A DNA stretch of 64,000 bases from Coriobacteriia bacterium (GCA_007121015.1 SKMN01000004.1:16507-80506), one strand, 5' to 3'; numbered from the stretch's first letter, positions 6,544 through 59,466 are shown. Numbers and translations: made by a program. The notes: generated from the sequence alone by a model not told the origin.

Positions 6544-6549
6544 GTGCCA

Positions 6550-43770: not shown

Positions 43771-43775
43771 GGCTG

Positions 43776-44531
43776 TTACACGTCTTCGAGGGCTTTGCGC
43801 CGCTCGATGCGTTTGACGAGGACGACCCGGGCGAGCGCCATGCTGATCTCGTAGAGTGCCACGAGCGCCGCGAACAGCGCGAGCATCGTCACGGGAGACC
43901 AGTCAGGCGTCGCGCTCGCCGAGACGACGATGAGCACGGTGTAGACCACGCGCCAGTTCTCACGCAGCTTCTTATAGGGCACGATGTTGAAGATCATCAG
44001 GTAGAAGACGACGACGGGCAGCTGGAACGCGACGCCGAAGCCGAGCAACAGCAACACCGCGCCCTGGAAGTAGGTGCTCGCCTCGGGCATCTGCGTGACG
44101 CCCTGCCAGGCTTGGCCGATGATCCACTCGAACGCCGTACCGAGAATGATCTGGTGTGCGAAGATCACGCCACCCATGAACAGCACGACCATCGCCGCGA
44201 ACGTGGGCATCAGCCACCTGCGCTCGTTGGGCTTGAGGGCGGGCAGGAAGAACGCCATGATCTGCCAGATGATGATGGGGCTGCCCACGACGAGCGTCGC
44301 GTAGAGCGCCACCTTGAAGCGCAGCGTGAACGTCTCGAACGGATTGAGCAGGATGAGCTCTTGGTCGCCGAAGATATGCATGATCGGCGACATGGCGAGG
44401 TTGTAGAAGAACGGAGCCGGGAAATACATCGCGATCGAGCCGGCGAACACGACGATGGCGATGACGATGAGTCGGTACCTCAGCTCACGCAGGTGCTCCA
44501 TTATGGGAAGGCGTTTGGGGTCGACAGGCAT
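43776..44531 (-). CDS. tatC: twin-arginine translocase subunit C
   Basis: EHLRELR, F.LPAL..E, FQLP, TPD and LYE motifs. Confidence 0.95.
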   Translation of the reverse strand: MPVDPKRLPIMEHLRELRYRLIVIAIVVFAGSIAMYFPAPFFYNLAMSPIMHIFGDQELILLNPFETFTLRFKVALYATLVVGSPIIIWQIMAFFLPALKPNERRWLMPTFAAMVVLFMGGVIFAHQIILGTAFEWIIGQAWQGVTQMPEASTYFQGAVLLLLGFGVAFQLPVVVFYLMIFNIVPYKKLRENWRVVYTVLIVVSASATPDWSPVTMLALFAALVALYEISMALARVVLVKRIERRKALEDV

Positions 44532-44548
44532 AGGTGGCAGCGAGGCGC

Positions 44549-44998
44549 CTAGAGCGCCTCTTCCTCCCCTTTCCGCTCATCAGATGACTCGTCATCGGGC
44601 GTATCGTTCCCTACCTGCACGGGAGCGTCAGGCGAAACTGAGGCGCCCGGGGTCCATCCACCGGCTTCCTCGGGGGTGGAGGGCTCCACATCGTCGGCTT
44701 CGTCGTCCTCGTGTGCGGCACCCTCGGCCGTGTCCCCATCGCCACCCTCGGCGCCACCCTCGACGCCGCTATCGGCAACGCCCTCATCGGCTTCCTTGGC
44801 CGGGACATCGGTCTTCTGCTGCTTCTCGGCCGCCGCCACCTCGGCCTTGATGAGTGACTCCATGGTCTGCTGAGCGCGCTTGAATTCGCGCATCATCTGG
44901 CCGACGGTGCGACCGACGGCCGGCAATTTGTCCGGACCGAAGATGAGAAGAACGAACACGATGATTATGAAGAGTTCAGTTCCGCTGATTCCGAACAC
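44549..44998 (-). CDS. TatA/TatB family translocase subunit
   Basis: MFGISGTELFIII...FGPDKLP; long acidic tail. Confidence 0.9.
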   Translation of the reverse strand: MFGISGTELFIIIVFVLLIFGPDKLPAVGRTVGQMMREFKRAQQTMESLIKAEVAAAEKQQKTDVPAKEADEGVADSGVEGGAEGGDGDTAEGAAHEDDEADDVEPSTPEEAGGWTPGASVSPDAPVQVGNDTPDDESSDERKGEEEAL

Positions 44999-45043
44999 AG
45001 ATACTCGCTCCCGGTATGGTCGACCGTGAAGAACGTGCGGTGG

Positions 45044-45379
45044 TTAGAACTGCCTGGCCTCGGCGGGGTCGGCGAAGATGGGGAAGACCTTGTCGAGCCC
45101 GGTGATGCGGAACACCTTGAGGATGCTGTCCCGCGTGCAGACGAGACGGATCGACCCGCCCTTCTCCTTCGCGCGACGCAGGCCGCCCACGAGCACACCA
45201 AGTCCAGAACTGTCGATGAACCCGACGCCCTCGAGGTCGACGAGCACGTATGTGCAGCCCGATTCCAACTGCTGCACCAGTGCTTCCTTGAGGCGAGGCG
45301 CGGTGTAGACATCGACCTCACCTTCGAGGCTGAGTACGCATATGCCGTCGGAGCGTTCGCTTCGAATGTCGAGTTCCAT
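45044..45379 (-). CDS. STAS anti-sigma factor antagonist (BldG/RsbV-like)
   Basis: GEVDVYTAP, FIDSSGLGVLVGGL and FRITGL motifs. Confidence 0.92.
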   Translation of the reverse strand: MELDIRSERSDGICVLSLEGEVDVYTAPRLKEALVQQLESGCTYVLVDLEGVGFIDSSGLGVLVGGLRRAKEKGGSIRLVCTRDSILKVFRITGLDKVFPIFADPAEARQF

Positions 45380-45526
45380 GCTCTGGATGCACTCCTCTTG
45401 TGGTGTGGTCACGTCGGTCGATTATAGCGCGGGGCTGTCACCGAAACCACTAGGCGGTAGTATAGCGGGTACACGGAGCGCAATCCGGGTACCATTGGAG
45501 TGTGCGACGACTATGAAAGGAAAGCG

Positions 45527-45880
45527 ATGTCTCTGACGATCGACCTGGAGCAGCAGCCTGACCACTGGGTTCTACGTCTCGCTGGCGACCTCGATTATGG
45601 CGAATGCGCCTCGTTCCGAATGCACATCGACAGAGTCCTGAAGTCGTCACCGCCCGCGACGATCGTTGATCTGTCCGATCTCGAGTATCTCGATAGCTCG
45701 GGACTCGGTCTGCTCCTCAGTCTCTCCAAGGAATACGGGGCTGCCGGTGGTCGACTCGTCCTCGTCACCAACGAGACCGTTGACAACATCCTGTCGCTCA
45801 CGCGGCTCAACGGCATCTTCTCCACGGCTGGATCGATGGAGGAGGCTCTCGCCACCATCGGCGACGGACCGACCGCATAG
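45527..45880 (+). CDS. STAS anti-sigma factor antagonist
   Basis: LAGDLD and YLDSSGLGLL motifs; AAAGGAAAG RBS. Confidence 0.9.
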   Translation: MSLTIDLEQQPDHWVLRLAGDLDYGECASFRMHIDRVLKSSPPATIVDLSDLEYLDSSGLGLLLSLSKEYGAAGGRLVLVTNETVDNILSLTRLNGIFSTAGSMEEALATIGDGPTA

Positions 45881-45890
45881 AAACGACGAA

Positions 45891-45910
45891 GCGGCGCCCA
45901 AGGGCGCCGC
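45891..45910. terminator. hairpin between convergent genes
   Basis: GCGGCGCCC-AA-GGGCGCCGC. Confidence 0.6.
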
Positions 45911-45949
45911 TCGGTCAGGGTCCACGAACGATCGTTCAGCCGACACCCC

Positions 45950-46609
45950 CTACGGAGTCGGGGTCTCCTCGGCCGAGGCTCCCTGCGTCCTCAGATTCTC
46001 AGCCCACGTGCGCGCGGTCGCCGCGGTCTCGGATTCAGGTGCGAGTTCGATGTGCTGCTCGAACGCGGCCAGGGCCGCATCCGGTTGCCCTTCAGCCCGG
46101 TAGAAGATGCCCGCGTTGTAGTACGCCGGCGCGAACTCCGGCGATCCCTCGATCACGGCCTCTATCGTCTCGATGGCCTGTGCGCGCTGTTCGGAGTAGA
46201 AGTACGCGACGGCCAGGTCGGTCGCCACGTTCGGATCGCCCGGCTCGACGTCGAGCGCCCGCTCGTAGTGCGCCACTGCCGCGTTCCACATCGGCAGGTC
46301 GAATCCGATGCCGGCCTGTCCGAGTTCGTTGCGGACCTGCAGCGCCCAGTCGAAGTACGCGTCCGCTGTCGCCACCAGGACCGTGTAGCTCGTCGGCTCA
46401 CTCTGTAGCATCACGTGGTACGAATTGACCGTCGGCGCATAGTTCTGGGCGACCCTCTCCAGTACTGCACCGGTCTCCGTGGCCTCGGGAGCCTGGGGCT
46501 GGCCGCCGCCCATGAAGAACACCGGGACCGCGGTCACGATGAACGCAAGGATGACGAAGATGATCGTCGCCTTGACCCAGAGCGCTGACTGTCTCTTGTT
46601 GATGGCCAC
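45950..46609 (-). CDS. membrane-anchored tetratricopeptide repeat protein
   Basis: N-terminal TM; YERALDVEP..VATDLAVAY and AYYNAG TPR patterns. Confidence 0.85.
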   Translation of the reverse strand: MAINKRQSALWVKATIIFVILAFIVTAVPVFFMGGGQPQAPEATETGAVLERVAQNYAPTVNSYHVMLQSEPTSYTVLVATADAYFDWALQVRNELGQAGIGFDLPMWNAAVAHYERALDVEPGDPNVATDLAVAYFYSEQRAQAIETIEAVIEGSPEFAPAYYNAGIFYRAEGQPDAALAAFEQHIELAPESETAATARTWAENLRTQGASAEETPTP

Positions 46610-46695
46610 TGTGAATCTACCTTCCGTTCCAGGACACGAACGACGGGTCCCGACCCGCACTCACGGATCGGGACCCTCGTCACTTCGTCGTACCG

Positions 46696-47145
46696 TTACT
46701 GCGCGTCGTCTTCAGCCGGAGCCTCTTCGACCTCGACATCGCCGTCATCAGGCTCATCGATCTCGCCAGGCATGCCAGGGGGCATGTCGCCTTCGCCGCC
46801 GTCCATGCCGCCGATGTCGGGATGCCCGGGAGGCATGCCGCCCTCGAGCTGCTCCGGAGAGAGCGGGGCTGCGCTCTGGCCCGGAGGAGGAGCGGGGACG
46901 GTCGCGGGAGATGTCGTCTGGGTCCCGCCGGTCGGGATCAACAGGCCGATCACCACGCCGAGCAGTAGGGCCACCACGCCGATAAGGCCGGCGACCGTCA
47001 TGGTCACGCTCTGCTGGCCGACAGGCGCCGCCGCAGCCGCCGCCGGACGCGGTCGCTTGACCGGGGTCTTGCTCTGAGCGCTAGCGGGTGCCTTCGGGTC
47101 ACCTGCAGTCTCGTCGTCGTCGAAGAAGAAGTCCTGATCGCTCAC
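46696..47145 (-). CDS. hypothetical single-TM protein with MPPGHP motif
   Basis: GGAGG RBS; TM segment; Pro/Gly/acidic C-terminus. Confidence 0.7.
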   Translation of the reverse strand: MSDQDFFFDDDETAGDPKAPASAQSKTPVKRPRPAAAAAAPVGQQSVTMTVAGLIGVVALLLGVVIGLLIPTGGTQTTSPATVPAPPPGQSAAPLSPEQLEGGMPPGHPDIGGMDGGEGDMPPGMPGEIDEPDDGDVEVEEAPAEDDAQ

Positions 47146-47355
47146 GTTCGTTTCCTCCTACTCTGCGGGATATCCCCGCATACCACCGTTCGAGCCGCCC
47201 TTGCAGCTGGAACACCGCGCGATTATATCACGGGCCCACCGATGACGCCTTTGTCGTGCACGATGAAGCAAGTACTCGGCCAGAGACACTCCTCCGGCTC
47301 ACAACACGATAACCACACAATCGCCGGCGAGGACGTGTCCGCACGCGTCTATCGG

Positions 47356-47781
47356 TCACCGGCGACGAGTATGTATCGAACGTACCTCCGGATACTCGTC
47401 CGCACCCGCGAGGCGCTCGGACACGCGGGAAAGGAAACCCAGCGCGGCCGCCCCGGCTCCGATCCCCACGATAGCTCCTAAGACGTCGGGGGCGACTCCG
47501 AGCCAGATTCCGGCGACGTGCCCAGCCCCGTACCCGGCAGCCAGGCACGCCACCGGGAAGACGTACACCCAGCGTCTGGCCCGTCCGGTCGCACGGGTGG
47601 GCGTCTCGACCTCGACTGTGTCGCCCACGCGTGCGCCCAGCCGGTCCACCGCGCCCTCGAGCAACCGGGTGCCCGCGGCGCCTTCGGCGCACGCGCCGCA
47701 CGTTTCGCACTCGGGACGAGCGACGATCGCAACGTCGACGGTCCCGTCATGGACCGCTACCACCGTGCCTCGCTCGTGCAT
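47356..47781 (-). CDS. RseC/MucC (SoxR-reducing system) family protein
   Basis: E.GTVV, CETCGAC, GARVGDTV and Y.FP motifs plus two TM segments. Confidence 0.85.
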   Translation of the reverse strand: MHERGTVVAVHDGTVDVAIVARPECETCGACAEGAAGTRLLEGAVDRLGARVGDTVEVETPTRATGRARRWVYVFPVACLAAGYGAGHVAGIWLGVAPDVLGAIVGIGAGAAALGFLSRVSERLAGADEYPEVRSIHTRRR

Positions 47782-47784
47782 GGC

Positions 47785-49134
47785 TCACGACCTCAGCGTG
47801 TCGCGTAGCTCCTCGGCCCGCGCCCGGATGCGGTCGTGATCGAGGAGCGTCCACTCGTCCTTCTCGTAGAGCGCCTGTCCCGCGACCATCGTGAACACGA
47901 TGTTCTCCTGGTTGGCGGTGTGAACGAGTGTCGAGTACGGGTAGAGGGTCGGGATCTGGTGACTGTGCGATATGTCGACGGCGATGATGTCGGCCTGCTT
48001 GCCGGGCTCGAGCGATCCCACCTTGTCGTCGACGCCGAGGGCCCGAGCGGCGTCGAGCGTCGCAAGCTTCACGAACTGCCGGGCGATGAGGTAGGGCTCG
48101 AAGCCCATGACCGCACGCTGGATGAGAAGCCCGATGCGCATCTCGTCGAACATGTCGAGCGTGTTGTTCGAGGCCGGAGAGTCCGTGCCGAGACCGACCT
48201 CGATCCCGCGCTCGAGGAACTTCCCAAGGGGCGCCATCCCCATCGCCAGCTTCGCGTTGCAGCGCGGACAGTACGCCACCGACACGTCGTTGGCGGCAAG
48301 GGTCTCGATGTCCGCGTCATCGACCTGGGTGCAGTGCACGGCGACGAGACCGGGTATCTCGAAGAGCCCCCATTGCTCCACATAGCGCACCGGGCTCACG
48401 CCGGTCGGCAGCCATCCCAGGTCGGCGCCACTGTACGTCTCCCGGTAGTCGACGGCGAGGCGCGAACTGCCGTACTTCACGAAATCGTACTCGTCCTTGG
48501 ACCCGGCGAGATGGATGGAGGCCGGGAGGTCGTCACGGGTCGCGACCTCGGTCACCGCCTCGTACACGGCCGGATGGCAGCTGTACGTGGAATGCGGCGC
48601 GATACCGATGGTGAGGCGCTGAGGATCACCGTACTCGCGCCACTCGGCGATGTCCTCCTCGGCAGCCGCCATGACCTCACCGACGTGCGCCTTCTCCATC
48701 GTCGCGACCTCGCGGTATACGAGCGCGCGCAATCCCGCCGAGGCTGCCGCGCGAGCCGAAGCCCCGGTGTCGGTGATGTCTGCGATGGTGGTGATGCCGG
48801 ATTCGAGAGCCTCCGCTGCACCGAGCAGTGCCGCATCGTCCCAGTCCGCAGCGGTAAGACGCTGTTCCTTCTCGAGCAGCTGCATCTTCCACTGCGAGTA
48901 GGGCAGATCGTCGACGAGGCCGCGCATCGCCGAGAACTCGAGGTGTGTGTGCATGTCGACGAAGCCCGGCATGAGGCAGGCGAGCCCGAAGTCGCGCACC
49001 TCCTCCTCGGGGTGTGCGGCGATCAGCTTCTCGCGCTCGCCGATCTCGACGATGGTGTCACCCTGGACCAGCACGCCGCCGTCGACGATGTGCGGGGCCG
49101 CGACCGGGAGCACGTAGCGTGCGGCAAGTATCAT
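47785..49134 (-). CDS. amidohydrolase, MTA/SAH deaminase-like
   Basis: PGFVDMHTH, APH, HLA, VHC, LGTDS and GSLEPGKQAD motifs. Confidence 0.88.
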   Translation of the reverse strand: MILAARYVLPVAAPHIVDGGVLVQGDTIVEIGEREKLIAAHPEEEVRDFGLACLMPGFVDMHTHLEFSAMRGLVDDLPYSQWKMQLLEKEQRLTAADWDDAALLGAAEALESGITTIADITDTGASARAAASAGLRALVYREVATMEKAHVGEVMAAAEEDIAEWREYGDPQRLTIGIAPHSTYSCHPAVYEAVTEVATRDDLPASIHLAGSKDEYDFVKYGSSRLAVDYRETYSGADLGWLPTGVSPVRYVEQWGLFEIPGLVAVHCTQVDDADIETLAANDVSVAYCPRCNAKLAMGMAPLGKFLERGIEVGLGTDSPASNNTLDMFDEMRIGLLIQRAVMGFEPYLIARQFVKLATLDAARALGVDDKVGSLEPGKQADIIAVDISHSHQIPTLYPYSTLVHTANQENIVFTMVAGQALYEKDEWTLLDHDRIRARAEELRDTLRS

Positions 49135-49215: not shown

Positions 49216-49989
49216 CTACTTCACCGCGACGTGGATCGCGACCACGCCGCCGGTGCGGTCCTCCCAGCTGATCGCCGAGAAACCGGTCTGGCGGAGCTCG
49301 GCCGCAAGCGCCCCCTGGTCGGGGAAGGAGCGGATCGAGTCGTTGAGGTAGACGAACGACCCACGGTCCCGTGTGAGCAGACCGCCGATCGCCGGGATGA
49401 CGAAACGCAGGTAGGCGTGGTAGAGCCACCGCCACGGCGCGAAGCCCGGACGCGAGAACTCGAGTACGACGTAGCGACCACCGGGCTTGAGGACGCGATA
49501 GACCTCGGCGAAGTTAGCCCGGCGGTCGGGCAGATTGCGTACGCCGAACGCCACGGTGACCACGTCGAAGCTCGCGTCCGGGAACGGGAGGTCCTGCGCA
49601 TCGGCGACCTCGAAGGCGAGCGTGGTACGCCCCTTGTACGCGCGCGCCTTGCGCGTCGCGATCTCGAGCATCTCGGGGACGAAATCGGTCCCCACGACGG
49701 CGGCAGGCCTACCGAGCCGGGCGAGTGCGAGCGAGAGATCGCCGGTGCCGGCGCAAAGATCGAGGACACGGCTCGTCCGCGTGAGGCGGGCCGCAGCGAC
49801 GGCATCGCGACGCCACAGGCGGTCGATGCCGAAGCTCGACAGCGCGTTGAACACGTCGTAGCGCCGCGCGATGAGCGAGAAGATACCGCGTACGCGCTCG
49901 GAAGTGGGCTCGCCCGGCGCCGGCGTGGGTGCAGGCGAGGGCGCCTCCGCGGGCTTGGACACGGGGGCGGGTCCTATAGGGTCGGGCAT
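49216..49989 (-). CDS. menG: UbiE/MenG demethylmenaquinone methyltransferase
   Basis: YDVFN..SFGIDRLWR, LDLCAGTGD, AFGVRN and YLNDSI motifs. Confidence 0.92.
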   Translation of the reverse strand: MPDPIGPAPVSKPAEAPSPAPTPAPGEPTSERVRGIFSLIARRYDVFNALSSFGIDRLWRRDAVAAARLTRTSRVLDLCAGTGDLSLALARLGRPAAVVGTDFVPEMLEIATRKARAYKGRTTLAFEVADAQDLPFPDASFDVVTVAFGVRNLPDRRANFAEVYRVLKPGGRYVVLEFSRPGFAPWRWLYHAYLRFVIPAIGGLLTRDRGSFVYLNDSIRSFPDQGALAAELRQTGFSAISWEDRTGGVVAIHVAVK

Positions 49990-51776
49990 CAGGCCTCCGA
50001 GGTCTCGCACACGGGATGCGACGCGGGCACGGGGCGTCTCGACCCGAACAGGGTAGCGAGATTCTCGGTGAGCCACAACATCCCCACGTGCCAAAAGTGG
50101 CGGAAGCTCACGTAGCGTGGCCAGTTGAGCTCGGACTTCTCGCAGACCGTGGACTCGGAGAGCCGGTCGACCTCGGCCTTGAGCGCCCCGAGCTTCTTCT
50201 CCCGCACCGCGGGATCAGGGAGCCGGCGGATCGCGTCGACGCGCTTCATCGCCACACGTGCCGCGGCGACGCGCTCGGCGGTCCTCGCGGCCACCTCTGG
50301 TTCGATGATGCCGATGCGGCCCTTGAGTTCGTTGAGCGCGAGGCCGACGTCGTACGTGGCGTCGACCATCTCGTCAGGGCCCATCGCGTGACTCTCGTAG
50401 TTCATGATGTGCTTCCACGAGGGCTCGATGAGCAGCTGGCGGTGTTCTTCAAGGGTCGTAGCGCGCAGGGTATAGCCGTACTTCTCGGGGTTGTCGAACG
50501 CCATGGAACCCGGGTCGAGGAAGGGAGCCATCGGCGAAGAGAACGCGAGGAGCCGAGAATCGTTGTCGACCTTGGCGTAGAGCGACTCGATGTAGGCGGG
50601 CGTCTCGCGTACGGACTCTGCCGTCTGCGTGGGGATACCGGTCATGAAGTAGAGGTCGAAGCGCGAGCACCCGTTGCGTAGCGCCGCAGCGATCGACTCC
50701 TCGACCTGCTCCATCGTGTAGTGGTGCTTGCCAAAGGCGGCACGGACCGTATCGTCGTGACTCTCGACGCTGATCTCGACGCTGTAGTCGCGCAGGTGCT
50801 CGTTCAAGAAACGGTAGAAGTCCTCGGCCGGTGGCTTGAAGAACTCGAAACCGATGGGATTCCGCAGGTTTATCTTGGAAAGCCCGCGGATGAACGCGGC
50901 GGTGTAGTCGCGTCCGGCCTGGAGGAAGTCGTTCAAGACGAAGATGGGGCCCGGGATGTACTTCTGGATATGCTCGATATCTCGCACGAGCAGCTCGGGG
51001 TCGCGGAACGCCACCTTGCGCCGCCCGAAGTGCTCGCGGAACGAGTACGCGCTCCCGCCGCACGTCGCGCAGTTGTGCGTGCAGCCCCGGCAGGTGAGCG
51101 AGGCGCACACCGGGTACTGGAGCCAGTCCTTGAACGGCACGAAGCCCATCATGTCGCGGTAACGGATGACCGCCTTCATGTTGAACGAGTAGTCGAGCGA
51201 GATGTCGTTCATGTCCTCAGGCACCCACTCGAGCGGGTTGACCACGAGCGAGCCGTCACGCGTCGTGTACGTGAGGTTGGGGATGTCGTCGACCCTGCCC
51301 TTACCTTTGATCGCGTACAGGAGGCGCGTCATAGGCTCCTCCGCCGAGTCGCCGCAGACGACGTAGTCGACGCACGGGTAGCTCGCGAGTTCCTCGTGGA
51401 AGTACGTCGACGACAGGCCGCCGAAGATCACCGGCGTATCGGGGTGGTACTTCTTGACGAGCTTCGCGACCTCGATCGACCCGTGGGCGTGCGGGAGCCA
51501 GTGAAGGTCGATGCCGAACGCGACCGGGTCCATCTCGCGGATCGCGCGCTCGACGTCGAAATCGGGGCGGTTCAGCATCAGGACCGCGAGGTTGACGATG
51601 CGCACCTGGAGGCCGTGGCGCTCCATGTACTCGGCCATCGTGGTGAAGCCGAGGGGGTACATCTCGAAGACGGGCGTCGAGGGGACCATGTCGGACACGG
51701 GGCCGAACATGATGGACCGCTCGCGGAAGTCGTACACGCTCGGGGCGTGCAGCAGCACCAGGTCGACTCGCGACAT
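49989..51776 (-). CDS. B12-binding domain/radical SAM protein (TIGR04190-like)
   Basis: LLHAPSVYDFR, IDLHWLPH, GGLSST, RGCTHNCATC and PFLDPGS motifs. Confidence 0.88.
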   Translation of the reverse strand: MSRVDLVLLHAPSVYDFRERSIMFGPVSDMVPSTPVFEMYPLGFTTMAEYMERHGLQVRIVNLAVLMLNRPDFDVERAIREMDPVAFGIDLHWLPHAHGSIEVAKLVKKYHPDTPVIFGGLSSTYFHEELASYPCVDYVVCGDSAEEPMTRLLYAIKGKGRVDDIPNLTYTTRDGSLVVNPLEWVPEDMNDISLDYSFNMKAVIRYRDMMGFVPFKDWLQYPVCASLTCRGCTHNCATCGGSAYSFREHFGRRKVAFRDPELLVRDIEHIQKYIPGPIFVLNDFLQAGRDYTAAFIRGLSKINLRNPIGFEFFKPPAEDFYRFLNEHLRDYSVEISVESHDDTVRAAFGKHHYTMEQVEESIAAALRNGCSRFDLYFMTGIPTQTAESVRETPAYIESLYAKVDNDSRLLAFSSPMAPFLDPGSMAFDNPEKYGYTLRATTLEEHRQLLIEPSWKHIMNYESHAMGPDEMVDATYDVGLALNELKGRIGIIEPEVAARTAERVAAARVAMKRVDAIRRLPDPAVREKKLGALKAEVDRLSESTVCEKSELNWPRYVSFRHFWHVGMLWLTENLATLFGSRRPVPASHPVCETSEA

Positions 51777-51978
51777 AGAAAGCCAGGCCTTTCTGTAGTG
51801 GTATGCGCGCGGCCCCGGCAAAGATTCGCCACCGGCATGGCTCATCGGACCGCGAGAGAACACGCGAAGTGTAGCACGCGGCGTGCCGGAATACGTGCGT
51901 CGTACACAGGATTGTTCGCGGTGAACGAGCGGATTCCTGCCGCCGCACGGGGCTCGCCGCACCCGCGCCCCGCTCACA

Positions 51979-52686
51979 TCAGATTGCTGTGTCTCCCGGC
52001 GCGGGTGTGGCGACCACCTCGGCCGGACGGGTCTCGCGTCGCTCCCTCTCCGTGAGGTGGTACCGGCACGCCAGCGACTTGATGTCGCACTGCATACGCA
52101 TGTGCCGCACGACCATCCCTTCGGGCTTCAGGTATTGAACGGCTGGCGTGAGCAGAAGGACACCGCCGACGCCGACTCCACCGAGCAAGCCGAGCACCCG
52201 GTCGACGAGAGGCCGGGAGCACGCCACGAGTGCGACGTGCGCGCCGAGTGCGCGGTCGATATGCGGTATCTCGTCGATATGCCGGACCTCGACACCGCTC
52301 ACGACCATACCGACGTCGCCCGGAAGCTCCGAGTAGTAAGCGACCGGCTTGAGCCCGTAGGACTCCTCGGGGAAGACGAACTCGAGGGCGCGGAGCATGT
52401 CGACCGTGCCCACACGGATGACAGGGTACTCGTCGCACAGTCCGAGAAAGCGCTTGAGCTTCTCGAAGAGCTCGCCCACGTCGTACCCGGCGCCGGGTCG
52501 CCCCGCCCCACCCATGAACGAGATGTCGCGGCGCACCGACTCTTGCTTGATGCCGAGTTCCTCGGCGAGCTGGGCCGAGGTGATACGTGACGCCGAGTCG
52601 CCGCGGCGCAGGATCTCTCCCACGTAGCAGTGGTACAGCGACAGCCGGTAGATGGTCTCGTCCGGGATGCGCCCCTGAGTCTTCAC
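51979..52686 (-). CDS. atypical Rex-like transcriptional regulator (paralog 1)
   Basis: Rex-type wHTH (YRLSLY, TS..LA, VRRDIS..G..G.GY); no GxGxxG; CDIKSLAC. Confidence 0.85.
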   Translation of the reverse strand: MKTQGRIPDETIYRLSLYHCYVGEILRRGDSASRITSAQLAEELGIKQESVRRDISFMGGAGRPGAGYDVGELFEKLKRFLGLCDEYPVIRVGTVDMLRALEFVFPEESYGLKPVAYYSELPGDVGMVVSGVEVRHIDEIPHIDRALGAHVALVACSRPLVDRVLGLLGGVGVGGVLLLTPAVQYLKPEGMVVRHMRMQCDIKSLACRYHLTERERRETRPAEVVATPAPGDTAI

Positions 52687-52705
52687 CCCTGACCCTCTCC
52701 CTGCG

Positions 52706-53353
52706 TCATCGGTCGGTCGGGAACCGGCACCCGCACGCAAGCGACTTGATATCGCACGGCATGCGGACATGGCGCACGTTCATGCCCGGCGGCCTCCCGA
52801 GCTTGATCTTCGGCGTGAGCAGGAGGACTCCCGACACCCCCGCTTGGTCGAGCATGTCGAGCACGGGGTCGATCCACGGCTGAGAGCACGCGACGAGCGC
52901 GACTTGGACTTCCAGGGCCGGATCGAGGTCGGGTATCTCGCTTACGTGACGCACCTCGACATCTCCCACGAATGTGCCTGCCTCTTCATCGACTTCCGAG
53001 AAATACGCGGCGTGCGTGATGCCGAAGTGGTTCTCCGGGAACAGCGCCTGCAGCGTGGTAAGCGTCTGCACCGTACCCACTCGTACGATCGGGTACTCCT
53101 CACGCAGGCCGAGGAAGGCCTCGAGCGCCACGAACAGATCCTCGCGGACGTATCCGGTCCCCGGTCGGCCCTTGCACTCTACGTAGGTCAGGTCGCGCCG
53201 TACCGTCTCTTCGGACAGGTCGAGTTCCTCGGCAAGGGTGCGGGAGGTCAGGTACATCTCGATGTCGCCTCGACGCTGCGCGTCCGCCAGGAAGCAGTGA
53301 TACAGGGACAAGCGATATACCGTCGCGTCGGGTGGCCGGCCGTTGTTGCCCAC
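52706..53353 (-). CDS. atypical Rex-like transcriptional regulator (paralog 2)
   Basis: Same architecture as paralog 1; ends MPCDIKSLACGC; GAGGAG RBS before GTG at 53353. Confidence 0.85.
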   Translation of the reverse strand: MGNNGRPPDATVYRLSLYHCFLADAQRRGDIEMYLTSRTLAEELDLSEETVRRDLTYVECKGRPGTGYVREDLFVALEAFLGLREEYPIVRVGTVQTLTTLQALFPENHFGITHAAYFSEVDEEAGTFVGDVEVRHVSEIPDLDPALEVQVALVACSQPWIDPVLDMLDQAGVSGVLLLTPKIKLGRPPGMNVRHVRMPCDIKSLACGCRFPTDR

Positions 53354-53491
53354 GGTGTCGCTCCTCATCTCCACCTCACCGCATCCGGGGTGCGCGGGGC
53401 GGAACCATCAGTTCCCGAAGATAGTGAAAGAATAAACATATCCGGGAAAAGATGCCACCCCTTCGCCCTGCCCGCTGTCGAGGTCGAGAGG

Positions 53492-54142
53492 CTAGACGGC
53501 AGCGACCGGGATCTTGCAGCCGCACGCGAGCGACTTGATGTCGCACGGCATCCGAACGTGTCGAACGTTCATGCCCTCGGGACGGTCGAGTTTGACCTTG
53601 GGGGTGAGGAGCAGCACGCCGTTGATCCCGGCTTCGCTAAGCATCTCGAGCACCGGATCGATCCACGGCTGGGAGCACGCGACGAGAGCAACGCGGACGT
53701 CGAGGTCCTTGTCGTGCTGCGGGATCTCGGTCACGTGCCTGACCTCGAGTTCCCCGATCACCGTACCGACGTCCTCCGGCTGCTCGGAGAAGTACGCCAC
53801 CGGCCGGACGCCGTAGGCGTCAGGCGGGAACACGACCTCGAGCGCGCGCAGCATCTGGGCGCTCCCGACACGCACGATCGGGTACTCGTCGTACAGGCCG
53901 AGGAACTCGCTGAGCGCCTCGAACAACGTGCCCATGCTGTAACCGACGCCGCGACGTCCCACGCCACCGATGTAGGAAAGATCGCGCCGCACCGTTTCCT
54001 CGCGGATGTCGAGTTCGTCTGCGAGCACACGGGATGTGACGTTCTTCTCATCCTCGCCGGCGCGAATCATCTCGCCGATGTAGCAATGGTAGAGGGACAG
54101 GCGGTAGACCGTCGCCTGCGGGATATAGTCGAAATCTGCCAC
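53492..54142 (-). CDS. atypical Rex-like transcriptional regulator (paralog 3)
   Basis: Same architecture as paralog 1; ends MPCDIKSLACGC. Confidence 0.85.
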   Translation of the reverse strand: MADFDYIPQATVYRLSLYHCYIGEMIRAGEDEKNVTSRVLADELDIREETVRRDLSYIGGVGRRGVGYSMGTLFEALSEFLGLYDEYPIVRVGSAQMLRALEVVFPPDAYGVRPVAYFSEQPEDVGTVIGELEVRHVTEIPQHDKDLDVRVALVACSQPWIDPVLEMLSEAGINGVLLLTPKVKLDRPEGMNVRHVRMPCDIKSLACGCKIPVAAV

Positions 54143-54201
54143 TTTGAACTACCTTCATGCCGGTTGCAGTCATGCCGGTTTAAGGCACTTTAATGCTCCA
54201 G

Positions 54202-54230
54202 AGTATATACCCGAACTGAGTGCAAGGCAA
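54202..54230 (-). promoter_or_regulatory. sigma-A type promoter for the Rex-like triplet
   Basis: TTGCCT-N17-TATACT. Confidence 0.6.
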
Positions 54231-54313
54231 CTAGTGAAATCTCGGTCATGCGCAACGATACTCGTTCACAGTCCCTCATACGGCGTGCGCACGGTGTCAA
54301 ACGGCGCATGCGG

Positions 54314-55498
54314 TTACTGCGAGACCGAGCCGCGGACGTGGCACTCGGCGCAGTACGTCGGCGCGTGACAATTGAAGCAAGCCTGGGCACCGGTCACGCG
54401 AACCGGGTCCATGTGTTGCGGCAGCCAGGGCCGTGTCGGATCGGCTCCTTGGTGATGGCAGTCGTTGCAGAAGTCGGTCCCCGGAGCCGCGGCGTGACAT
54501 GGTTCGCAGACCTCCGGCCGCGACCTGCCGTCCTCTCCGTGGTCCTGCTCGAAGTTGGTCGGATGAGGCATCTGGATGCCGTGACAGTCGGTACAGAAGA
54601 TCTCCTCGTTGTGGCACGTCGCGCAGTATCCGACCGCCGAGACCGGAACGAGGCCGAGGTCGTATGCATCGTCACTCACCGGCTCGGCCTCAGGGACATC
54701 ACCTACGGCAAGTGTCTCCTCGAGGCTTCTCCGCTCGAGATCCTCCATCGCAAGTTCAGCGTGTAGACTCGAATCGCCGAACGGCTCGTAGAACCCGTCC
54801 TGGAAGTGGTTCGCCGGCATGAACTCGAAGTCGTCAGGGTGGCATGCGTCACACGCGCCCGGAGCCATGATCCCGCTCGGCGACTCGTCGGTGAGCGTGT
54901 GGCAGCGGAAGCACGCGGTCATCTCCATGAAGTCATCGTGAGGCTGGTTGGGCTCGCCGGTCTGCGGATCGATGAGTGTCAGCTCGAAGTCTTCACGGTG
55001 GGCGACGCGGTTGTGGCAGATGGTGCAGTGGATGTCGGCCTCCGAGTGCACAGCGTGGTCGATGATGATGCCGGGACTCGGCGTCACGGTGCGCCTCTCG
55101 AGGTCGTGGCATTGCGTGCACTGGCTCTCAGGGAAGTACTTGGCGCTGAGTGCCACGTGGGAGTCAGGGTTGAGCGGCAGACTGTACGTGTTGGTCGCGG
55201 TGAGGTACAACTCGCCGAGCGCTTCGGCCTTGTGCAGCATGAAGTAGATCGGACCTGCGTTCGCCTTCATGTGGCACGACATGCATTGAAGTTCGGAGTG
55301 CGAAGAGCGGTTGAATGCGATGATCGTGTCGTCCTGGACCTTGTGGCACCCCTCGGCGCAGAACCAGTTGGTCGATGTCACGCCGAGAGCGACGATCACG
55401 AGAGCAGCGAGGGAGAGTACCACAGCCCCGCTCCAGATGATGTAGCGCGGCCTGCGCGCCGGATCTTTGAACCCCGTGATTATCTGCAGCCTACGCAT
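54314..55498 (-). CDS. membrane-anchored multiheme c-type cytochrome with NapC/NirT-like N-terminus (about 12 hemes)
   Basis: N-terminal TM; 11 CxxCH plus 1 CxxxCH (CAEGCH). Confidence 0.92.
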   Translation of the reverse strand: MRRLQIITGFKDPARRPRYIIWSGAVVLSLAALVIVALGVTSTNWFCAEGCHKVQDDTIIAFNRSSHSELQCMSCHMKANAGPIYFMLHKAEALGELYLTATNTYSLPLNPDSHVALSAKYFPESQCTQCHDLERRTVTPSPGIIIDHAVHSEADIHCTICHNRVAHREDFELTLIDPQTGEPNQPHDDFMEMTACFRCHTLTDESPSGIMAPGACDACHPDDFEFMPANHFQDGFYEPFGDSSLHAELAMEDLERRSLEETLAVGDVPEAEPVSDDAYDLGLVPVSAVGYCATCHNEEIFCTDCHGIQMPHPTNFEQDHGEDGRSRPEVCEPCHAAAPGTDFCNDCHHQGADPTRPWLPQHMDPVRVTGAQACFNCHAPTYCAECHVRGSVSQ

Positions 55499-55608
55499 GG
55501 ATCTGGATCGCGCCTCTCTCTACCCCATTCTAACGGAACGGCCGAACCCGGCCGTCACTCGATGCAGTATAGCGTAAAAGCGAAACCGAGAGCGCGCTAG
55601 CGCTAGCG

Positions 55609-56757
55609 CTACTCCTCCCAGTGATGACAGTTCAGGCACAGGGCGTCCGTGTATGCTGCAGACGTGCCAGGCGGCACGATAAGGAGCCGCTGCGCGTTGC
55701 TCTCGTGAGGGAATACCTGGAAGCGCGGGTTGTCGGTACTCGGGCCTTCCGGGTCGTCGTCGTCAGGCCTGCCGTCGGGTTCCGTGATCTTGAACTCCTG
55801 CGTCGCATCGCGCACGTCCTCGTGGCACTGCTGACACAGCGGACCGGGCGACTCCTGCTGGAGCGGCGTGCGCGTCGTCTCTCCGTTGACAGTGATCTCA
55901 GGCATGCGATAGCCGAGGTTCGACTGTCCGAGAGGACCGAGCGTGGTCTCTGTGGAATCGAGGGACGTCAGGACCGGCAGACGGTTGTAGTAGAAGTGAT
56001 CGTCCTGCTGCACCGGGTGGTTGTGCGTCCCGGAACCGTTCGCCCTGCCCTGGTGGCACGTGGCGCACCAGCCGGTGCCGTACACGGTCACCGACGTGTC
56101 GGCACCCGTGGGGGCGCGGCGCAGGAGTCTGCTGCTCGCAGTCGCGTACTCCGTCGCGACCTCGCTCGAGTCCGAACTGATGTAGCGGTCGCTCCGGTAG
56201 CGGTCGCCGAGGAACGGCTCGACCATGCGGCCCTCGATACCGTGTGGCGAGTGACAATCGGTACACGTGAGCGTCCCGCCCGGACCCGAGAAGGGCTGCG
56301 CACGCGGCCCGCCGGTCTCCGGGTCGCCGCCGGGGATGATGTTGGTCGTCTCGATGCGGTGCGCTGAGAGCGGCTCCTCACCGGTCCGCGCCTTGATGAC
56401 ACCATAGACGCCGTTGCCGCCCGTGCCGTCATGACATGACTCGCACACCGACTTGATGGTGGGACCGGGAAGCAACATGAAATACGCTGGCGCCGCATGC
56501 ACCGAGTGGCAGGCTCCGCATTTCGTGGTGCTCGAGCTGTACCCGCCATGGGGGCCCGAGCGTGTCTTCTGCTCGGGATCCTCGGGATCGACGATCCCGT
56601 GGCAGTCTATGCAATCCCGACCCGGCTCGAGGTGGTCGAGACCCGACTCGGCGTCGAGGTCCTCGTACACGAGCTCGTCGTACGCGAACGCGGAAGTCGC
56701 GCCCGCGAACATGAGGGCAGCAGCGATGATGATACCGATGATCAACGGACGTCCCAC
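55609..56757 (-). CDS. exported heptaheme c-type cytochrome
   Basis: Signal peptide ending AFA; CIDCH, CGACH, CESCH, CTDCH, CATCH, CQQCH and CLNCH. Confidence 0.92.
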   Translation of the reverse strand: MGRPLIIGIIIAAALMFAGATSAFAYDELVYEDLDAESGLDHLEPGRDCIDCHGIVDPEDPEQKTRSGPHGGYSSSTTKCGACHSVHAAPAYFMLLPGPTIKSVCESCHDGTGGNGVYGVIKARTGEEPLSAHRIETTNIIPGGDPETGGPRAQPFSGPGGTLTCTDCHSPHGIEGRMVEPFLGDRYRSDRYISSDSSEVATEYATASSRLLRRAPTGADTSVTVYGTGWCATCHQGRANGSGTHNHPVQQDDHFYYNRLPVLTSLDSTETTLGPLGQSNLGYRMPEITVNGETTRTPLQQESPGPLCQQCHEDVRDATQEFKITEPDGRPDDDDPEGPSTDNPRFQVFPHESNAQRLLIVPPGTSAAYTDALCLNCHHWEE

Positions 56758-56806
56758 GGCCTTCCGGCTCCAATCCCACGAGCACCAGCGCCCCCACGCT
56801 GACCCT

Positions 56807-56916
56807 ATCGTACAAGGTCAGAGCGGGTAATAGCAAACTTTGGTCTCGTGAAAACATCCACGATAGTCGTTGCTATGTAGTATGCAATCTACATGCCATA
56901 GTGATACACATCACTT
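56807..56916 (-). promoter_or_regulatory. cytochrome promoter with three palindromic operator candidates
   Basis: TTGCTA-N18-TACGAT; TCGTGAA-N4-TCCACGA (56846-56863), ATGTAG-N8-CTACAT (56875-56894), AGTGAT-N4-ATCACT (56900-56915). Confidence 0.6.
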
Positions 56917-58095
56917 GACCAGGCGAAGCAGTTGTGCCCGGTTGTTCTCTTTGTCCGCCACGATCACGAGATCTCCTGCCGCGCCGATACCGTTCGGCAG
57001 GTTGAGCTGGCCCGGAGAGGCCCCCCGCTGCCCGAACCGGCCGAGCACCTGTCCCTCGTCGCTGAGGAGCACGATCTCGTACTCGAAGGAGTCGACCACC
57101 GCGATCGTCCCGTCGTCGAGTACCGCGACGCCACGAGGCAGACCGAACACGGCTTCGCTGTCGTCCCGCTGCTCTCCGGTGATACCGGATACGTGAACGC
57201 CTCGACCGACCGCCCACTTGAGCTGGCCTTCGGGGGAGAATGCCTGGATACGGGCGTTGTTGGAATCGGCCACGATGACAGTGCCGTCAGGAGCGACCGC
57301 GATGCCGTTGGGGCGGTCGAACGCGCCCGGCTCTACACCCGGCCTCCCGAACTGCCGCACGAACTCGCCGCGAGTCGTGAACACGACGACTTGGTACGAG
57401 TCGGCAGCGTAGACGTGGTCCCCGGCGACGGCCACATCCGTGACAGCGATGCCGGTACCGTCCTGACCCGAACCTCCCTGCCCCACGCGCTTGGTGGGAT
57501 CCGGGAAACGCCTCAGGAACTCCCCTTCCGCGTCGAAGACCTGGATCTGGTCGTTGCGGAAATCAGCGACATACACGTCTCCCCTGTCGTCGACATCGAT
57601 GCCAAGGGGGAAGTTGAGGAGACCCCCTTCCCACGTGGCGTCGAAGCCCGGTAGCGGCTTTGCGATGCCGAACCCGCCGAACTCGAAGAGGAACCGGCCG
57701 CGGCGCGTAAACACCGCGATACGGTTGTGGTCGGAGTCCACGACGTAGATCCGGTCGTTGGACCCGATGGCCGCGTCCATCGGACGACGGAACGTCGGCT
57801 CGCTCCCCCTGCCGGGCCCCTCGATGGTCAACACCGGCTCCAGGCCGGCGACGGCCGCCCCGCCCTGCGTGACCAGACCGCGAGGCGACAGCAGCAGGAA
57901 CAGCACGAGGAGCAGGATGATCAGGAGGACGGCAAGGGCCACCGCGAGGAGCCCGAAGCCTTGCCGCGCCGTCATCACGTGTTGGGCCTCCTCTGCCGAG
58001 GGGCTCACGACGTCGTCTTCTGCAACGATCCTCGTGGTCACAGGCGCGTCTGCATCTGTGTCATGCGCGGGCCTGACCCGCTCGTTTCCATTCAC
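56911..58095 (-). CDS. membrane-anchored NHL-repeat beta-propeller protein
   Basis: TM segment; repeated F..P.GIAV...YVAD..N.RIQVF. Confidence 0.92.
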   Translation of the reverse strand: MNGNERVRPAHDTDADAPVTTRIVAEDDVVSPSAEEAQHVMTARQGFGLLAVALAVLLIILLLVLFLLLSPRGLVTQGGAAVAGLEPVLTIEGPGRGSEPTFRRPMDAAIGSNDRIYVVDSDHNRIAVFTRRGRFLFEFGGFGIAKPLPGFDATWEGGLLNFPLGIDVDDRGDVYVADFRNDQIQVFDAEGEFLRRFPDPTKRVGQGGSGQDGTGIAVTDVAVAGDHVYAADSYQVVVFTTRGEFVRQFGRPGVEPGAFDRPNGIAVAPDGTVIVADSNNARIQAFSPEGQLKWAVGRGVHVSGITGEQRDDSEAVFGLPRGVAVLDDGTIAVVDSFEYEIVLLSDEGQVLGRFGQRGASPGQLNLPNGIGAAGDLVIVADKENNRAQLLRLVK

Positions 58096-58727
58096 TGGTT
58101 CACACCCATCCGCGACAAGGCATCGCGTGCTTCCTCCATGTCAGGTATATAGCCGAGAGCGTTCTCGAAGCACTCCGCGGCACGTTCCGCGTCGCCGAGG
58201 TTCTCGTGTGCGAGGCCCATGAGAAGACATAGGTCCGCGATACCGATCGAGTGTTCGGCCGCTGGCTCTACCACGGCGAGGACATCTCTATACCGTCCTT
58301 GCTCAGCATAGAGCGTGCCGAGAACCGTAGCAGCATGAACGTGTCCCGGCTCGTGCCGGAGCACGGTGAGGAGCATGCGTTCGCCCTCCGCCACGCTGCC
58401 CGTCTCGAGGTTGACCAGTCCAGCTCCGTAGAGAGCCACGACGTCGTCGGGTCGTTCCTCGAGGAGCGTCCCGTAGACGACGAGGGCCTCATCGAGCCGC
58501 GCGGCCCGATGGTATGCGAACGCGAGTTCGATGCGAGCCGCAGCATCCTGAGGGTCGGTCACGACCGCCTCCTCGAGGTGGGCGACCTCCATCTCGGCCG
58601 CCGAGGAGTACTGGGGCCTGACCTGCAGTTCCTGCACAACGGCTATCGCAGCGACCGTCACCCCGGCGAGCAGCGCGACCACCATGGCAACGAGCCACGC
58701 CGGGACCGAGGCGTGCGTGCCGGTCAT
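58092..58727 (-). CDS. membrane-anchored TPR protein
   Basis: TM segment plus TPR-like helices. Confidence 0.82.
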   Translation of the reverse strand: MTGTHASVPAWLVAMVVALLAGVTVAAIAVVQELQVRPQYSSAAEMEVAHLEEAVVTDPQDAAARIELAFAYHRAARLDEALVVYGTLLEERPDDVVALYGAGLVNLETGSVAEGERMLLTVLRHEPGHVHAATVLGTLYAEQGRYRDVLAVVEPAAEHSIGIADLCLLMGLAHENLGDAERAAECFENALGYIPDMEEARDALSRMGVNQ

Positions 58728-59377
58728 TGCGCAGGACTCCCCGGATCGAGGTGGAACGAGAGGATCTGCAGCTCACCTGCCATATCCGCCTGTCTCACCG
58801 TGACGTCATCGGGCACCACGAGCTGGACCGGGGCGAAGTTCATCACCGCTTTGACGCCAGCTGCGACCAGCCGGTCTACGATGCGTTGCGCCGCACTGGC
58901 CGGTACGGTCAGGACCACGATCTCGACACGCTCGCGCACGATGACGCCTTCCAGATCGTCTATGCTCTCGATCGTGACACCATCCACGCTCGTACCGACT
59001 TTGGCGGGATCGGCGTCGAGCACCGCTACGACGGCCATGCCACGCTCTTCGAACCCGGCGTATCCCTGCAAGGCGCTTCCGAGCCGTCCGAACCCGATGA
59101 TCGCCACACGCCGGTGCTCGACCACGCCAAGCCGTTTGGACAGGTTCGTGACGAGTGAATCCACGTCGTAACCCACTCCCCGGGTGCCGAACTCCCCAAG
59201 GTAGGAGAAGTCCTTGCGGACCTGGGCTGCGTTCGTGCCCGCCATGTCGGCGATCTGTACCGAGTTCAACACCGGCATGCGGTGCGCCTGCGCCTGGATA
59301 AGGCACCTGAGGTAGAGCGGTAGACGCTGCACGGTGGTGGGTGGGACTCTCACTGGCTTTGTCGGCCGTTGGCTCAT
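58724..59377 (-). CDS. rex: redox-sensing transcriptional repressor Rex (canonical)
   Basis: RLPLYLR, QVRKDFSYLGEFGTRGVGY, IIGFGRLGSAL, D.DP.KVG and NFAP motifs. Confidence 0.96.
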   Translation of the reverse strand: MSQRPTKPVRVPPTTVQRLPLYLRCLIQAQAHRMPVLNSVQIADMAGTNAAQVRKDFSYLGEFGTRGVGYDVDSLVTNLSKRLGVVEHRRVAIIGFGRLGSALQGYAGFEERGMAVVAVLDADPAKVGTSVDGVTIESIDDLEGVIVRERVEIVVLTVPASAAQRIVDRLVAAGVKAVMNFAPVQLVVPDDVTVRQADMAGELQILSFHLDPGSPAQ

Positions 59378-59466
59378 TGCGCTCCTCACTCCGGTCGCTC
59401 GAACGCATCCGCCCGCAACACGTCGGCGGACCTCGGTACTGGCAGGTCGTTTCGCAGCGGCCCCTG

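Follow-up and report, generated by a model that had tools for sequence, protein, structure and literature searches.

A stretch of 64,000 nucleotides from a Coriobacteriia bacterium (GCA_007121015.1, SKMN01000004.1:16507-80506), referred to below as the window, carries three adjacent genes on the same strand, designated A, B, and C, whose products are related to the transcriptional repressor Rex (Table 1). Rex serves as the paradigm of NADH/NAD+ sensing among Gram-positive bacteria (NAD, nicotinamide adenine dinucleotide) and, to our knowledge, every member solved or studied uses its dinucleotide site. Since A, B, and C have lost the NADH signature and carry conserved cysteines at the switch point of Rex, they probably sense a metal or an iron-sulfur (Fe-S) species, not NADH. 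They represent a branch of the Rex family that lies, among the genomes surveyed here, only in the window's own order (Coriobacteriia, Anaerosomatales). A canonical Rex gene is also present in the window, separated from the three genes by a cluster encoding multiheme cytochromes.

Table 1. Features of the variant-Rex locus and of the fourth copy found elsewhere in the same genome (aa, amino acids).
Feature	Position	Strand	Description
Paralog A	53492-54142	-	216 aa; ortholog of the single-copy variant-Rex gene in related genomes; conserved residues His19-Cys20, Cys156, Cys200, Cys207, Cys209
Paralog B	52706-53374	-	222 aa; 61% identical to A; same five Cys
Paralog C	51979-52686	-	235 aa from GTG 52686; 57% identical to A
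Paralog D, fourth copy	G000:C25:42000-60000 (locus L051), 6329-7258	-	
Canonical Rex	58724-59389	-	221 aa; GFGRLG, LDADP; NF003992 271.5 bits (cut-off 226)
Promoter-like TTGCCT-17-TATACT	54202-54230	-	upstream of A; only such site in 51600-54400
NapC/NirT-type multiheme cytochrome	54314-55498	-	directly upstream of A; PF03264 40.6 bits; cluster in 12/21 neighbourhoods
Multiheme c-type cytochrome, paired CXXCH	55609-56757	-	cluster in 13/21 neighbourhoods
NHL-repeat protein of the cytochrome cluster	56911-58095	-	PF01436 112 bits; cluster in 14/21 neighbourhoods
B12-binding radical S-adenosylmethionine (SAM) protein	49989-51977	-	directly downstream of C; TIGR04190 631.4 bits (cut-off 500); 13/21 neighbourhoods
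UbiE/MenG-type quinone methyltransferase	49216-50094	-	PF01209 221 bits; cluster in 11/21 neighbourhoods
Amidohydrolase	47785-49134	-	follows UbiE in the conserved block; Pfam assignment; cluster in 10/21 neighbourhoods

The winged-helix domain of Rex, which a first-pass annotation of the window had recognised in all three proteins, was confirmed by profile searches, with PF06971 scoring 42.4, 34.0, and 41.4 bits for A, B, and C, respectively (cut-off 27). As that annotation had also anticipated, PF02629 was weak or absent, reaching 22.1 bits in A and 17.3 in B (cut-off 22.3) and giving no match in C, compared with 79.5 bits in the canonical Rex. The NCBIfam Rex models align with the three proteins from end to end, all below their cut-offs (best scores of 118.7, 82.2, and 99.3 for A, B, and C, respectively, vs. 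cut-offs of 126-138), and identity to the genome's own Rex is 25-30%. The recognition helix, EETVRRD, had been singled out as a further departure from Rex. It does differ from the AAQVRKD of the genome's own Rex but falls within the canonical range: since RRD also occurs in the Rex proteins of Bacillus subtilis (satiRRD) and Streptococcus agalactiae (satvRRD), the variant recognition helix is not unusual. The start of C was taken at the GTG preceded by a GGAGAGG Shine-Dalgarno sequence; the longest open reading frame (ORF), 51979-52770, would overlap B. In C, Pro199 is replaced by Gln, Cys209 is missing, and the C-terminal tail is longer.

The loss of the NAD(H) site was assessed against a 123-row family alignment (A, B, and C with 120 database hits, among which at least two are proteins of the window itself) and a canonical control of 112 Rex cluster representatives, defined by their possession of all three P-loop glycines; canonical and variant columns were compared in a 135-row multiple alignment. 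In agreement with the first-pass annotation, the GxGxxG motif is replaced in all three proteins, the GFGRLG of the canonical Rex giving way to GSAQML in A, GTVQTL in B, and GTVDML in C, and so is the adenosine-binding loop (LDADP to FSEQP, FSEVD, and YSELP, respectively). When A was aligned by HMMER to Thermus aquaticus Rex (1xcb_A), G87, G89, and G92 came to lie opposite G93, A95, and L98, and R90 opposite Gln96. An Asp at the end of strand beta-2 (D112 in T. aquaticus Rex, Asp115 in TmRex) binds the adenosine ribose in Rex (passages of PMC6125430). This position corresponds to Ser119, which is present in all 123 family rows, the same column being Asp in 109 of the 112 canonical representatives.

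The residues that couple the dinucleotide to DNA binding are replaced as well. The switch of T. aquaticus Rex consists of Arg16', Tyr98', and Asp188, with an Asp188-Arg16' salt bridge in the open, NAD+-bound form and an Asp188-Tyr98' hydrogen bond in the closed, NADH-bound form (passages of PMC6125430), and the nicotinamide pocket of Rex is described as formed by the N-terminus of a helix (in part of PMC8063818). In the HMMER alignment, Arg16 corresponds to Cys20 of A, Asp188 to Arg197, and Tyr98 to Phe105; the multiple alignment places the Tyr98 column on Val104 instead, and neither Phe105 nor Val104 has a hydroxyl group. Cys20, Arg197, and Phe105 are each found in 123 of 123 family rows. The canonical representatives carry Arg at column 20 (94/112), Asp at column 197 (90/112), and Tyr at column 104 (87/112). 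Thus, both the dinucleotide site and its latch to the DNA-binding domains have been replaced by invariant residues. As far as the alignments indicate, the novelty lies in this rewriting of the switch to invariant Cys20, Phe105 or Val104, and Arg197. By every functional hallmark of Rex tested (P-loop, ribose Asp, switch triad, curated profile cut-offs, and operator), A, B, and C are not Rex, whereas by fold and descent they are Rex-family proteins.

Because Cys20 occupies the column of Arg16, it stands at the position of one partner in a known intersubunit contact, and Cys200 lies three residues after the position of the other partner (Asp188, now Arg197). The motifs YRLSLYHC, ALVACS, and CDIKSLAC were indeed common to the three proteins, as first noticed, with the last one extended to CGC in A and B only (CRY in C). 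Across the family alignment, His19, Cys20, and Cys200 are present in 123 of 123 rows, Cys209 in 120, and Cys156 and Cys207 in 119 each. In the canonical control, Cys was found in 0, 0, 1, 2, and 0 of the 112 representatives at columns 20, 156, 200, 207, and 209, respectively, with a median of one Cys per protein; by these alignment counts, the cysteine set of the variant family exceeds chance. Conservation of the cysteines in homologs, a prediction of the original reading, holds family-wide for Cys20 and Cys200, but Cys156, Cys207, and Cys209 proved characteristic of the core clade. All distant clades, which share 32-54% identity with A, retain YHC (once as YQC) and PC (once as TC). Only core-clade members have Cys207-x-Cys209; in a divergent clade lacking this CxC, a Cys pair sits on the C-terminal tail instead (CC, HSCC, or C-HAH). 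The combination of His and Cys on helix alpha-1, a Cys where the swapped helix begins, and a C-terminal Cys pair would resemble a set of ligands and not a simple disulfide pair.

A four-sequence alignment had suggested that Cys20 was inherited from canonical Rex, an artefact of a single-residue gap. With all 135 rows aligned, the Cys of canonical Rex occupies column 21 (17/112), column 20 being Arg, and the idea of inheritance was dropped. The P-loop is also degenerate, as W[VL]G[AS]xx[LM], in a second group of Rex homologs (P0148, P0224, P0229, P0258, and P0268), whose members have Cys in the Cys209 column; this group seems to be separate from the variant family.

An AlphaFold2 model of A, built with 63 family sequences, had a predicted local distance difference test score (pLDDT) of 86.9 and a predicted template modelling score (pTM) of 0.77. 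The top approximately 20 Foldseek matches of this model were all Rex structures (E about 5e-14; template modelling score 0.72-0.74), including 3ikv, 3wgg, 3ikt, 3ket, 5zz5, 7wb3, and 1xcb. A homodimer of A predicted with two 4Fe-4S clusters included, which were unscored and carry no information on cluster binding, reached an interaction prediction score from aligned errors (ipSAE) of 0.61, compared with 0.00 for the best of three controls; the ipSAE mark is reached by 20 of 30 proteins solved as one-chain pairs vs. 1 of 23 with single-chain structures. The homodimer runs shared at least 80% of their contacts, with a partner pLDDT of at least 78. Three parts make up the predicted interface: the helix that follows the former P-loop (96-105); the strands at 150-155 and 175-181, facing partner residues 201-205; and helix alpha-1 (12, 13, 16, 20, 24, and 27) against partner residues 196-210 (listed on the partner side as 196-203, 205-207, and 209-210). 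The predicted dimer would be the swapped-helix dimer of Rex. Since Rex dimers have already been solved, the success of the homodimer prediction may reflect those structures, and it shows likeness only. The location of conserved cysteines at the dimer interface, proposed at the outset, agrees with the model, in which Cys20, Cys200, Cys207, and Cys209 all appear in the predicted interface lists. Identity among paralogs is higher at interface than at other positions for B and C (69-73% vs. 54-62%) and about the same for D (60% vs. 59%). Heterodimers among A, B, and C are possible, in that this interface conservation would permit them.

The family itself is not new to the databases. A word-indexed homolog search gave 279 matches at E <=1e-3, the best 120 of which are 57-100% identical to A. 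Among these best 120 of 279, all named hits come from metagenome-assembled genomes of Coriobacteriia, Anaerosomatales, or Actinomycetota, and the labels given to the family vary (Rex, AT-rich DNA-binding protein, "winged-helix domain-containing protein," "redox-sensing transcriptional repressor," or "hypothetical"), which flags an annotation problem. The claim that no such Rex subfamily has been described has held up, with full-text literature searches finding none (subscription journals and supplements being outside their reach). An exhaustive HMMER search of 1.84 billion cluster representatives recovered 10 clusters at E <=1e-30 and 417 at E <=1e-10, nearly all of the latter being ordinary Rex. 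When 201 genomes sampled across the class were surveyed with the family profile (E <=1e-30), 54 gave a match, all of them labelled as the window's own genome, the same family, or the same order; no match was found at this threshold in the 106 genomes of families f20-f25.

The triplet had originally been taken as a unit. This did not survive the survey, in which the gene was single-copy in 50 of the 54 positive genomes; the multi-copy genomes are the window's own (G000), with four copies, G107, with three, and G053 and G171, with two each. A tree of 54 rows (IQ-TREE quick search, with support from the Shimodaira-Hasegawa-like approximate likelihood ratio test, SH-aLRT, only) was built after removal of fragmentary and fused proteins (P0126, P0128, P0131, and P0134-P0138), of locus L018, which duplicates the window's own, and of repeated sequences. 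In this tree the variant family forms one clade against canonical Rex (SH-aLRT 99). The G139 single copy, which is the nearest row to A (77% identity), groups with A, B, and D (SH-aLRT 95), and C forms a long branch inside the 20-row core clade. The usual single-copy state, together with these placements, indicates that the triplet is a recent lineage-specific expansion.

The genes surrounding the triplet were compared in 21 maps (20 loci of 20 kb plus the window), with all-against-all BLASTP of ORFs and annotation of ORF cluster representatives with Pfam and NCBIfam; this survey of context leaves out the distant clades P0123, P0127, P0129/P0130, and P0132/P0133. The cytochrome and quinone genes, pointed out from the start as neighbours of the triplet, turned out to be conserved neighbours of the family. 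The gene order of the core clade runs Wzy_C/TPR, canonical Rex, TPR, NHL, multiheme cytochrome, NapC/NirT cytochrome, and variant Rex, followed by the TIGR04190 B12-radical-SAM gene, UbiE/MenG, amidohydrolase, RseC, TPR, STAS, TatA, TatC, HypA, and HypB. Of the 21 maps, 16 have cytochrome or cytochrome-maturation genes upstream, and 10 have the radical-SAM, UbiE, and amidohydrolase genes directly downstream; the five maps without cytochromes all belong to a divergent clade. The stretch from the multiheme cytochrome gene to the NapC gene holds, in many relatives, three further genes, those for ResB, CcsA, and a giant MtrC-like cytochrome (approximately 1370 aa, bearing F5/8 type C and CarboxypepD_reg domains; compared in loci L027, L033-L035, and L040), none of which is present at that position in the window (54314-56757).

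Some further observations were made in this neighbourhood. The canonical Rex gene lies within the conserved Wzy_C/TPR-Rex-TPR-NHL-cytochrome order, also in loci L031, L041, and L045, so that the cytochrome cluster is bordered by the canonical and the variant Rex at opposite ends. The position of the TIGR04190 gene directly upstream of UbiE/MenG and the amidohydrolase in 10 of 21 neighbourhoods suggests that its product may have a role in quinone modification, e.g., C-methylation. The block continues at 42157-47781 of the window with RseC/MucC, TPR, two STAS, TatA, TatC, HypA, HypB, and HD-protein genes, a gene content that would link the same neighbourhood to Tat export and nickel insertion for hydrogenase.

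The company of cytochrome genes raises the idea of a heme sensor in which His19-Cys20 and Pro-Cys200 ligate heme in the vacated cleft, matching cytochrome synthesis to the heme supply. Cys/His axial ligation is common among heme-sensing regulators, and in relatives the variant gene adjoins ResB, CcsA, and the very large multiheme cytochromes. Nevertheless, the motif is Pro-Cys and not the Cys-Pro of heme-regulatory motifs, the predicted fold gives no indication of a heme pocket, and neither the clade at copper loci nor paralog D, both described next, has a heme context. We regard a heme sensor as very improbable.

The divergent clade (loci L037-L039, L042, and L052-L059, with the match at approximately 8001-8690 in L052-L059; loci of this copper-locus clade were located with a 7-row alignment of its members) retains Cys20 and Cys200 and has the C-terminal CC tail. 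In nine of its loci, which include the query's own locus and one close kin, a Cys/Met-rich cupredoxin-like lipoprotein is encoded at most 1 kb away in eight, a DsbD_2 membrane protein in six, and a CopA-type ATPase in five. This ATPase has three HMA domains and the motifs CPC, YNx4P, and MxxSS, which we take to be the signature of a Cu(I) pump, and it scores 622 bits with TIGR01511 (cut-off 397). Judged by this gene content, the divergent clade is a candidate new regulator of copper loci. Paralog D, in which His19 is replaced by Asp and Cys207 by His, has yet another setting: on its strand lie a LysR regulator, D itself, a Mo/W-type binding protein, an ATP-binding cassette (ABC) ATPase with TOBE, and MobA/FdhD, and on the other strand Fur, CbiM, CbiQ, an ABC ATPase, and a P1B ATPase, with a Tll0287-like histidine kinase between the two sets.

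The cysteines could also act as a metal-free thiol switch, either through a Cys20-Cys200' intersubunit disulfide or through alkylation or persulfidation of one Cys, triggered by quinones, oxidants, or sulfane sulfur and linking the protein with the quinone pool or with sulfur respiration. No cysteines other than Cys20 and Cys200 are kept in all distant clades and these two lie at the known intersubunit contact, the invariant His19 and Arg197 nearby could lower the thiol pKa, and quinone-modifying genes (UbiE and the B12-radical-SAM gene) are directly downstream. This explanation leaves unaccounted for the C-terminal Cys pair and its two forms, CxC in the core clade and the CC tail in the divergent one, as well as the copper-export and metal-transport contexts. 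Cytoplasmic disulfides are, moreover, unusual in anaerobes. The cultured relatives respire sulfur compounds, as a thiol switch coupled to sulfur respiration would have it, but do so as anaerobes, and one of them is an obligate Fe(III) reducer (passages of PMC9686372; in these passages a "Rex-type" gene is mentioned without distinguishing canonical from variant). On balance, a thiol switch seems rather unlikely.

Regarding expression, a contig of 1884 nt from a metatranscriptome library, made from a sample that may be the window's source, covers 52301-54184, which takes in A and B completely and C in its 5' portion. Its end at 54184 is 18 nt below the promoter-like site listed in Table 1, whose -35/-10 block is conserved at the same position upstream of the orthologs of the f2 clade, and no terminator-like site was found in 51600-54400. 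The contig is consistent with co-transcription of A, B, and C but is no demonstration of it. Because a DNA contig from a second sample (X2) bridges 52609-54500, covering the start of C, B, and A, the tandem layout is real and not an assembly artefact. A joint in one X2 contig, skipping 52477-53906, had only 22 nt on its shorter side and was treated as a cross-match to a paralog or another organism, not as a deletion variant. At 53525, within gene A, a C>T difference was observed in contigs of runs X1, X2, and X3, with the X1 contigs breaking there, which points to strain variation in the community; run X4 (share 0.33) yielded short contig pieces only.

These data also bear on whether B and C (and D) are merely redundant duplicates drifting to loss, the function of the triplet being that of A alone. 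Their branches are long (0.58 for B, 0.72 for C, and 0.84 for D vs. 0.27 for A), and the losses of Pro199 and Cys209 in C and of His19 and Cys207 in D might be taken as the beginning of decay. Against this, all the copies are intact ORFs retaining nearly all family-invariant residues, B and the 5' part of C are present on the RNA-library contig, D lies in a coherent new context, and G107 shows an independent expansion to three copies. Degeneration of the duplicates is therefore judged improbable.

Taking these results together, A, B, and C appear to be expressed lineage-specific duplicates of one conserved regulator, an offshoot of Rex. It retains the Rex architecture, with a winged-helix domain, a Rossmann-like core, and a C-terminal helix predicted to swap into the partner. 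The triad is replaced by invariant His19-Cys20 on alpha-1 and by Arg197/Pro199-Cys200 where the swapped helix begins, to which the core clade adds Cys156, in the former nicotinamide-side loop, and Cys207-x-Cys209, at the end of the swapped helix. Thiolates of both subunits may hold a metal ion or an Fe-S cluster where the DNA-binding domain is latched to the swapped helix, and gain, loss, or redox change of this cofactor could set the spacing of the recognition helices, as NADH does in Rex. That a metal ion or Fe-S cofactor at this Cys/His latch replaces NAD(H) as the signal has, in our estimation, an even chance of being correct; for the core clade, an Fe-S cluster and a thiophilic metal ion such as Cu(I) are about equally probable. 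The putative targets, proposed from conserved gene order only, would be the adjacent multiheme cytochromes and cytochrome c maturation genes upstream and the B12-radical-SAM/UbiE quinone genes downstream. A broader proposal, in which the Rex scaffold has become a family of metal or metallocluster sensors whose clades control copper export on the one hand and cytochromes for extracellular electron transfer and quinone modification on the other, with a fourth copy in an island for Mo/W and Ni/Co uptake, is put forward tentatively, as plausible though somewhat short of even.

Several observations weigh against a metal or cluster sensor with these targets. Control of the neighbouring genes is inferred from synteny only, and RNA-library contigs can hold DNA and prove neither a single transcript nor its ends. 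The closeness of Cys20 to Cys200' is predicted from homology to the Arg16'-Asp188 contact and from the interface lists, Cys156 is Thr or Ser in several distant clades, and the two universal cysteines suit a disulfide or a metal site of two to three ligands better than a four-Cys cluster. All five tested genomes carrying the copper-locus clade have a CsoR-family gene elsewhere, so that a second Cu sensor is unneeded there; the same finding rules out this clade as a simple replacement of CsoR. The Rex operator (ROP) has a consensus of the type TTGTGAA-N4-TTCACAA (abstract of PMC2883068), and no canonical ROP was found in the 64-kb window, where a single match with two mismatches lies inside gene A (0.47 expected; equalled in 36 of 100 shuffles). 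Nor was any inverted repeat of at least 10 nt detected in the intergenic regions upstream of A, B, NapC, and Rex; one is present upstream of the multiheme cytochrome gene (56793-56827). Finally, Glu120, beside Ser119, is kept in 121 of 123 rows and could still bind ribose, and the conserved residues of the former pocket may allow a nucleotide-like or other small ligand.

The latter points lead to a sensor of small molecules, binding a nucleotide other than NAD(H) or another cofactor in the Rossmann-like pocket, with the cysteines in a structural role, e.g., a Zn site stiffening the swapped helix. The high conservation of G93 (123/123), Ala100, Ser119-Glu120, Thr180-Pro181, and other former pocket positions, the PF02629 score of A just under the cut-off, and the Rex fold supported by the Foldseek matches of the model would all be accommodated. 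Yet the second and third glycines of the loop, the ribose Asp, and the Tyr, Asp, and Arg of the switch are all replaced, and a purely structural Zn site would be unexpected at the exact switch contact. We consider such a sensor unlikely.

A crude count of palindromes and 8-mers shared upstream of 19 orthologs turned up nothing but stretches of the upstream cytochrome gene that encode heme motifs. In the f2 clade (L012, L015, L019, L021, L024, and others), a palindrome, CCGTT(A)-N5-(T)AACGG, was observed about 50 bp upstream of the -35 box and about 150 bp upstream of the variant gene. Scanned with at most one mismatch, CCGTT-N7-AACGG was found upstream of the variant gene in three f2-clade loci and otherwise mostly inside genes, with one 1-mismatch copy in the window, at 55525-55541 between the two cytochrome genes. 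It is a possible operator, treated as a lead only and unused as evidence.

Compared with known systems, A, B, and C share with Rex (T-Rex of T. aquaticus/T. thermophilus, B-Rex of B. subtilis, and TmRex of T. maritima; PDB 1XCB, 3IKT, 2VT2, and 5ZZ5) the winged helix, the Rossmann-like core, and the predicted swapped helix. They differ from it in having no GxGxxG, no ribose Asp, and Cys20, Phe105 (or Val104), and Arg197 instead of the triad, and their family in having five conserved cysteines vs. a canonical median of one, scores below all NCBIfam cut-offs, and no ROP found nearby. In the Rrf2-type Fe-S regulators (NsrR, RsrR, and IscR), which are dimeric winged-helix proteins, C-terminal cysteines and a residue of the partner's N-terminal helix hold the cluster. 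This may be a working likeness of A, B, and C, with an intersubunit cluster tied to the position of the DNA-binding domain, although the fold is unrelated, Pfam and NCBIfam scans showed no relationship, and the cluster is hypothetical in our proteins. An intersubunit site of His19, Cys20, and Cys200' would resemble the Cu(I) site of CsoR, and C-x6-C-x-C appears similar to the Cys-rich tails of CopY, although CsoR and CopY have different folds. The CGC present in A and B recalls the cluster-binding segment of SoxR, a short-motif resemblance only. A thiol or cluster tuned by respiratory redox state, as in SoxR or QsrR-YodB, would fit the quinone and cytochrome neighbours, although SoxR (MerR) and QsrR-YodB (MarR/DUF24) differ from A, B, and C in fold.

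If the proposal of a metal or Fe-S sensor is true, it would add a new sensing modality to a textbook redox-sensor fold and, if confirmed, would provide an example of a sensor fold that gained a new signal by keeping its allosteric machinery and replacing the trigger. Since the proteins are small, soluble-looking, and represented on an RNA-library contig, the hypothesis is directly testable. A confirmed sensor of this kind would also offer a handle on the regulation of multiheme cytochromes for metal respiration in the poorly known Anaerosomatales (OPB41) of the subsurface and of soda lakes.

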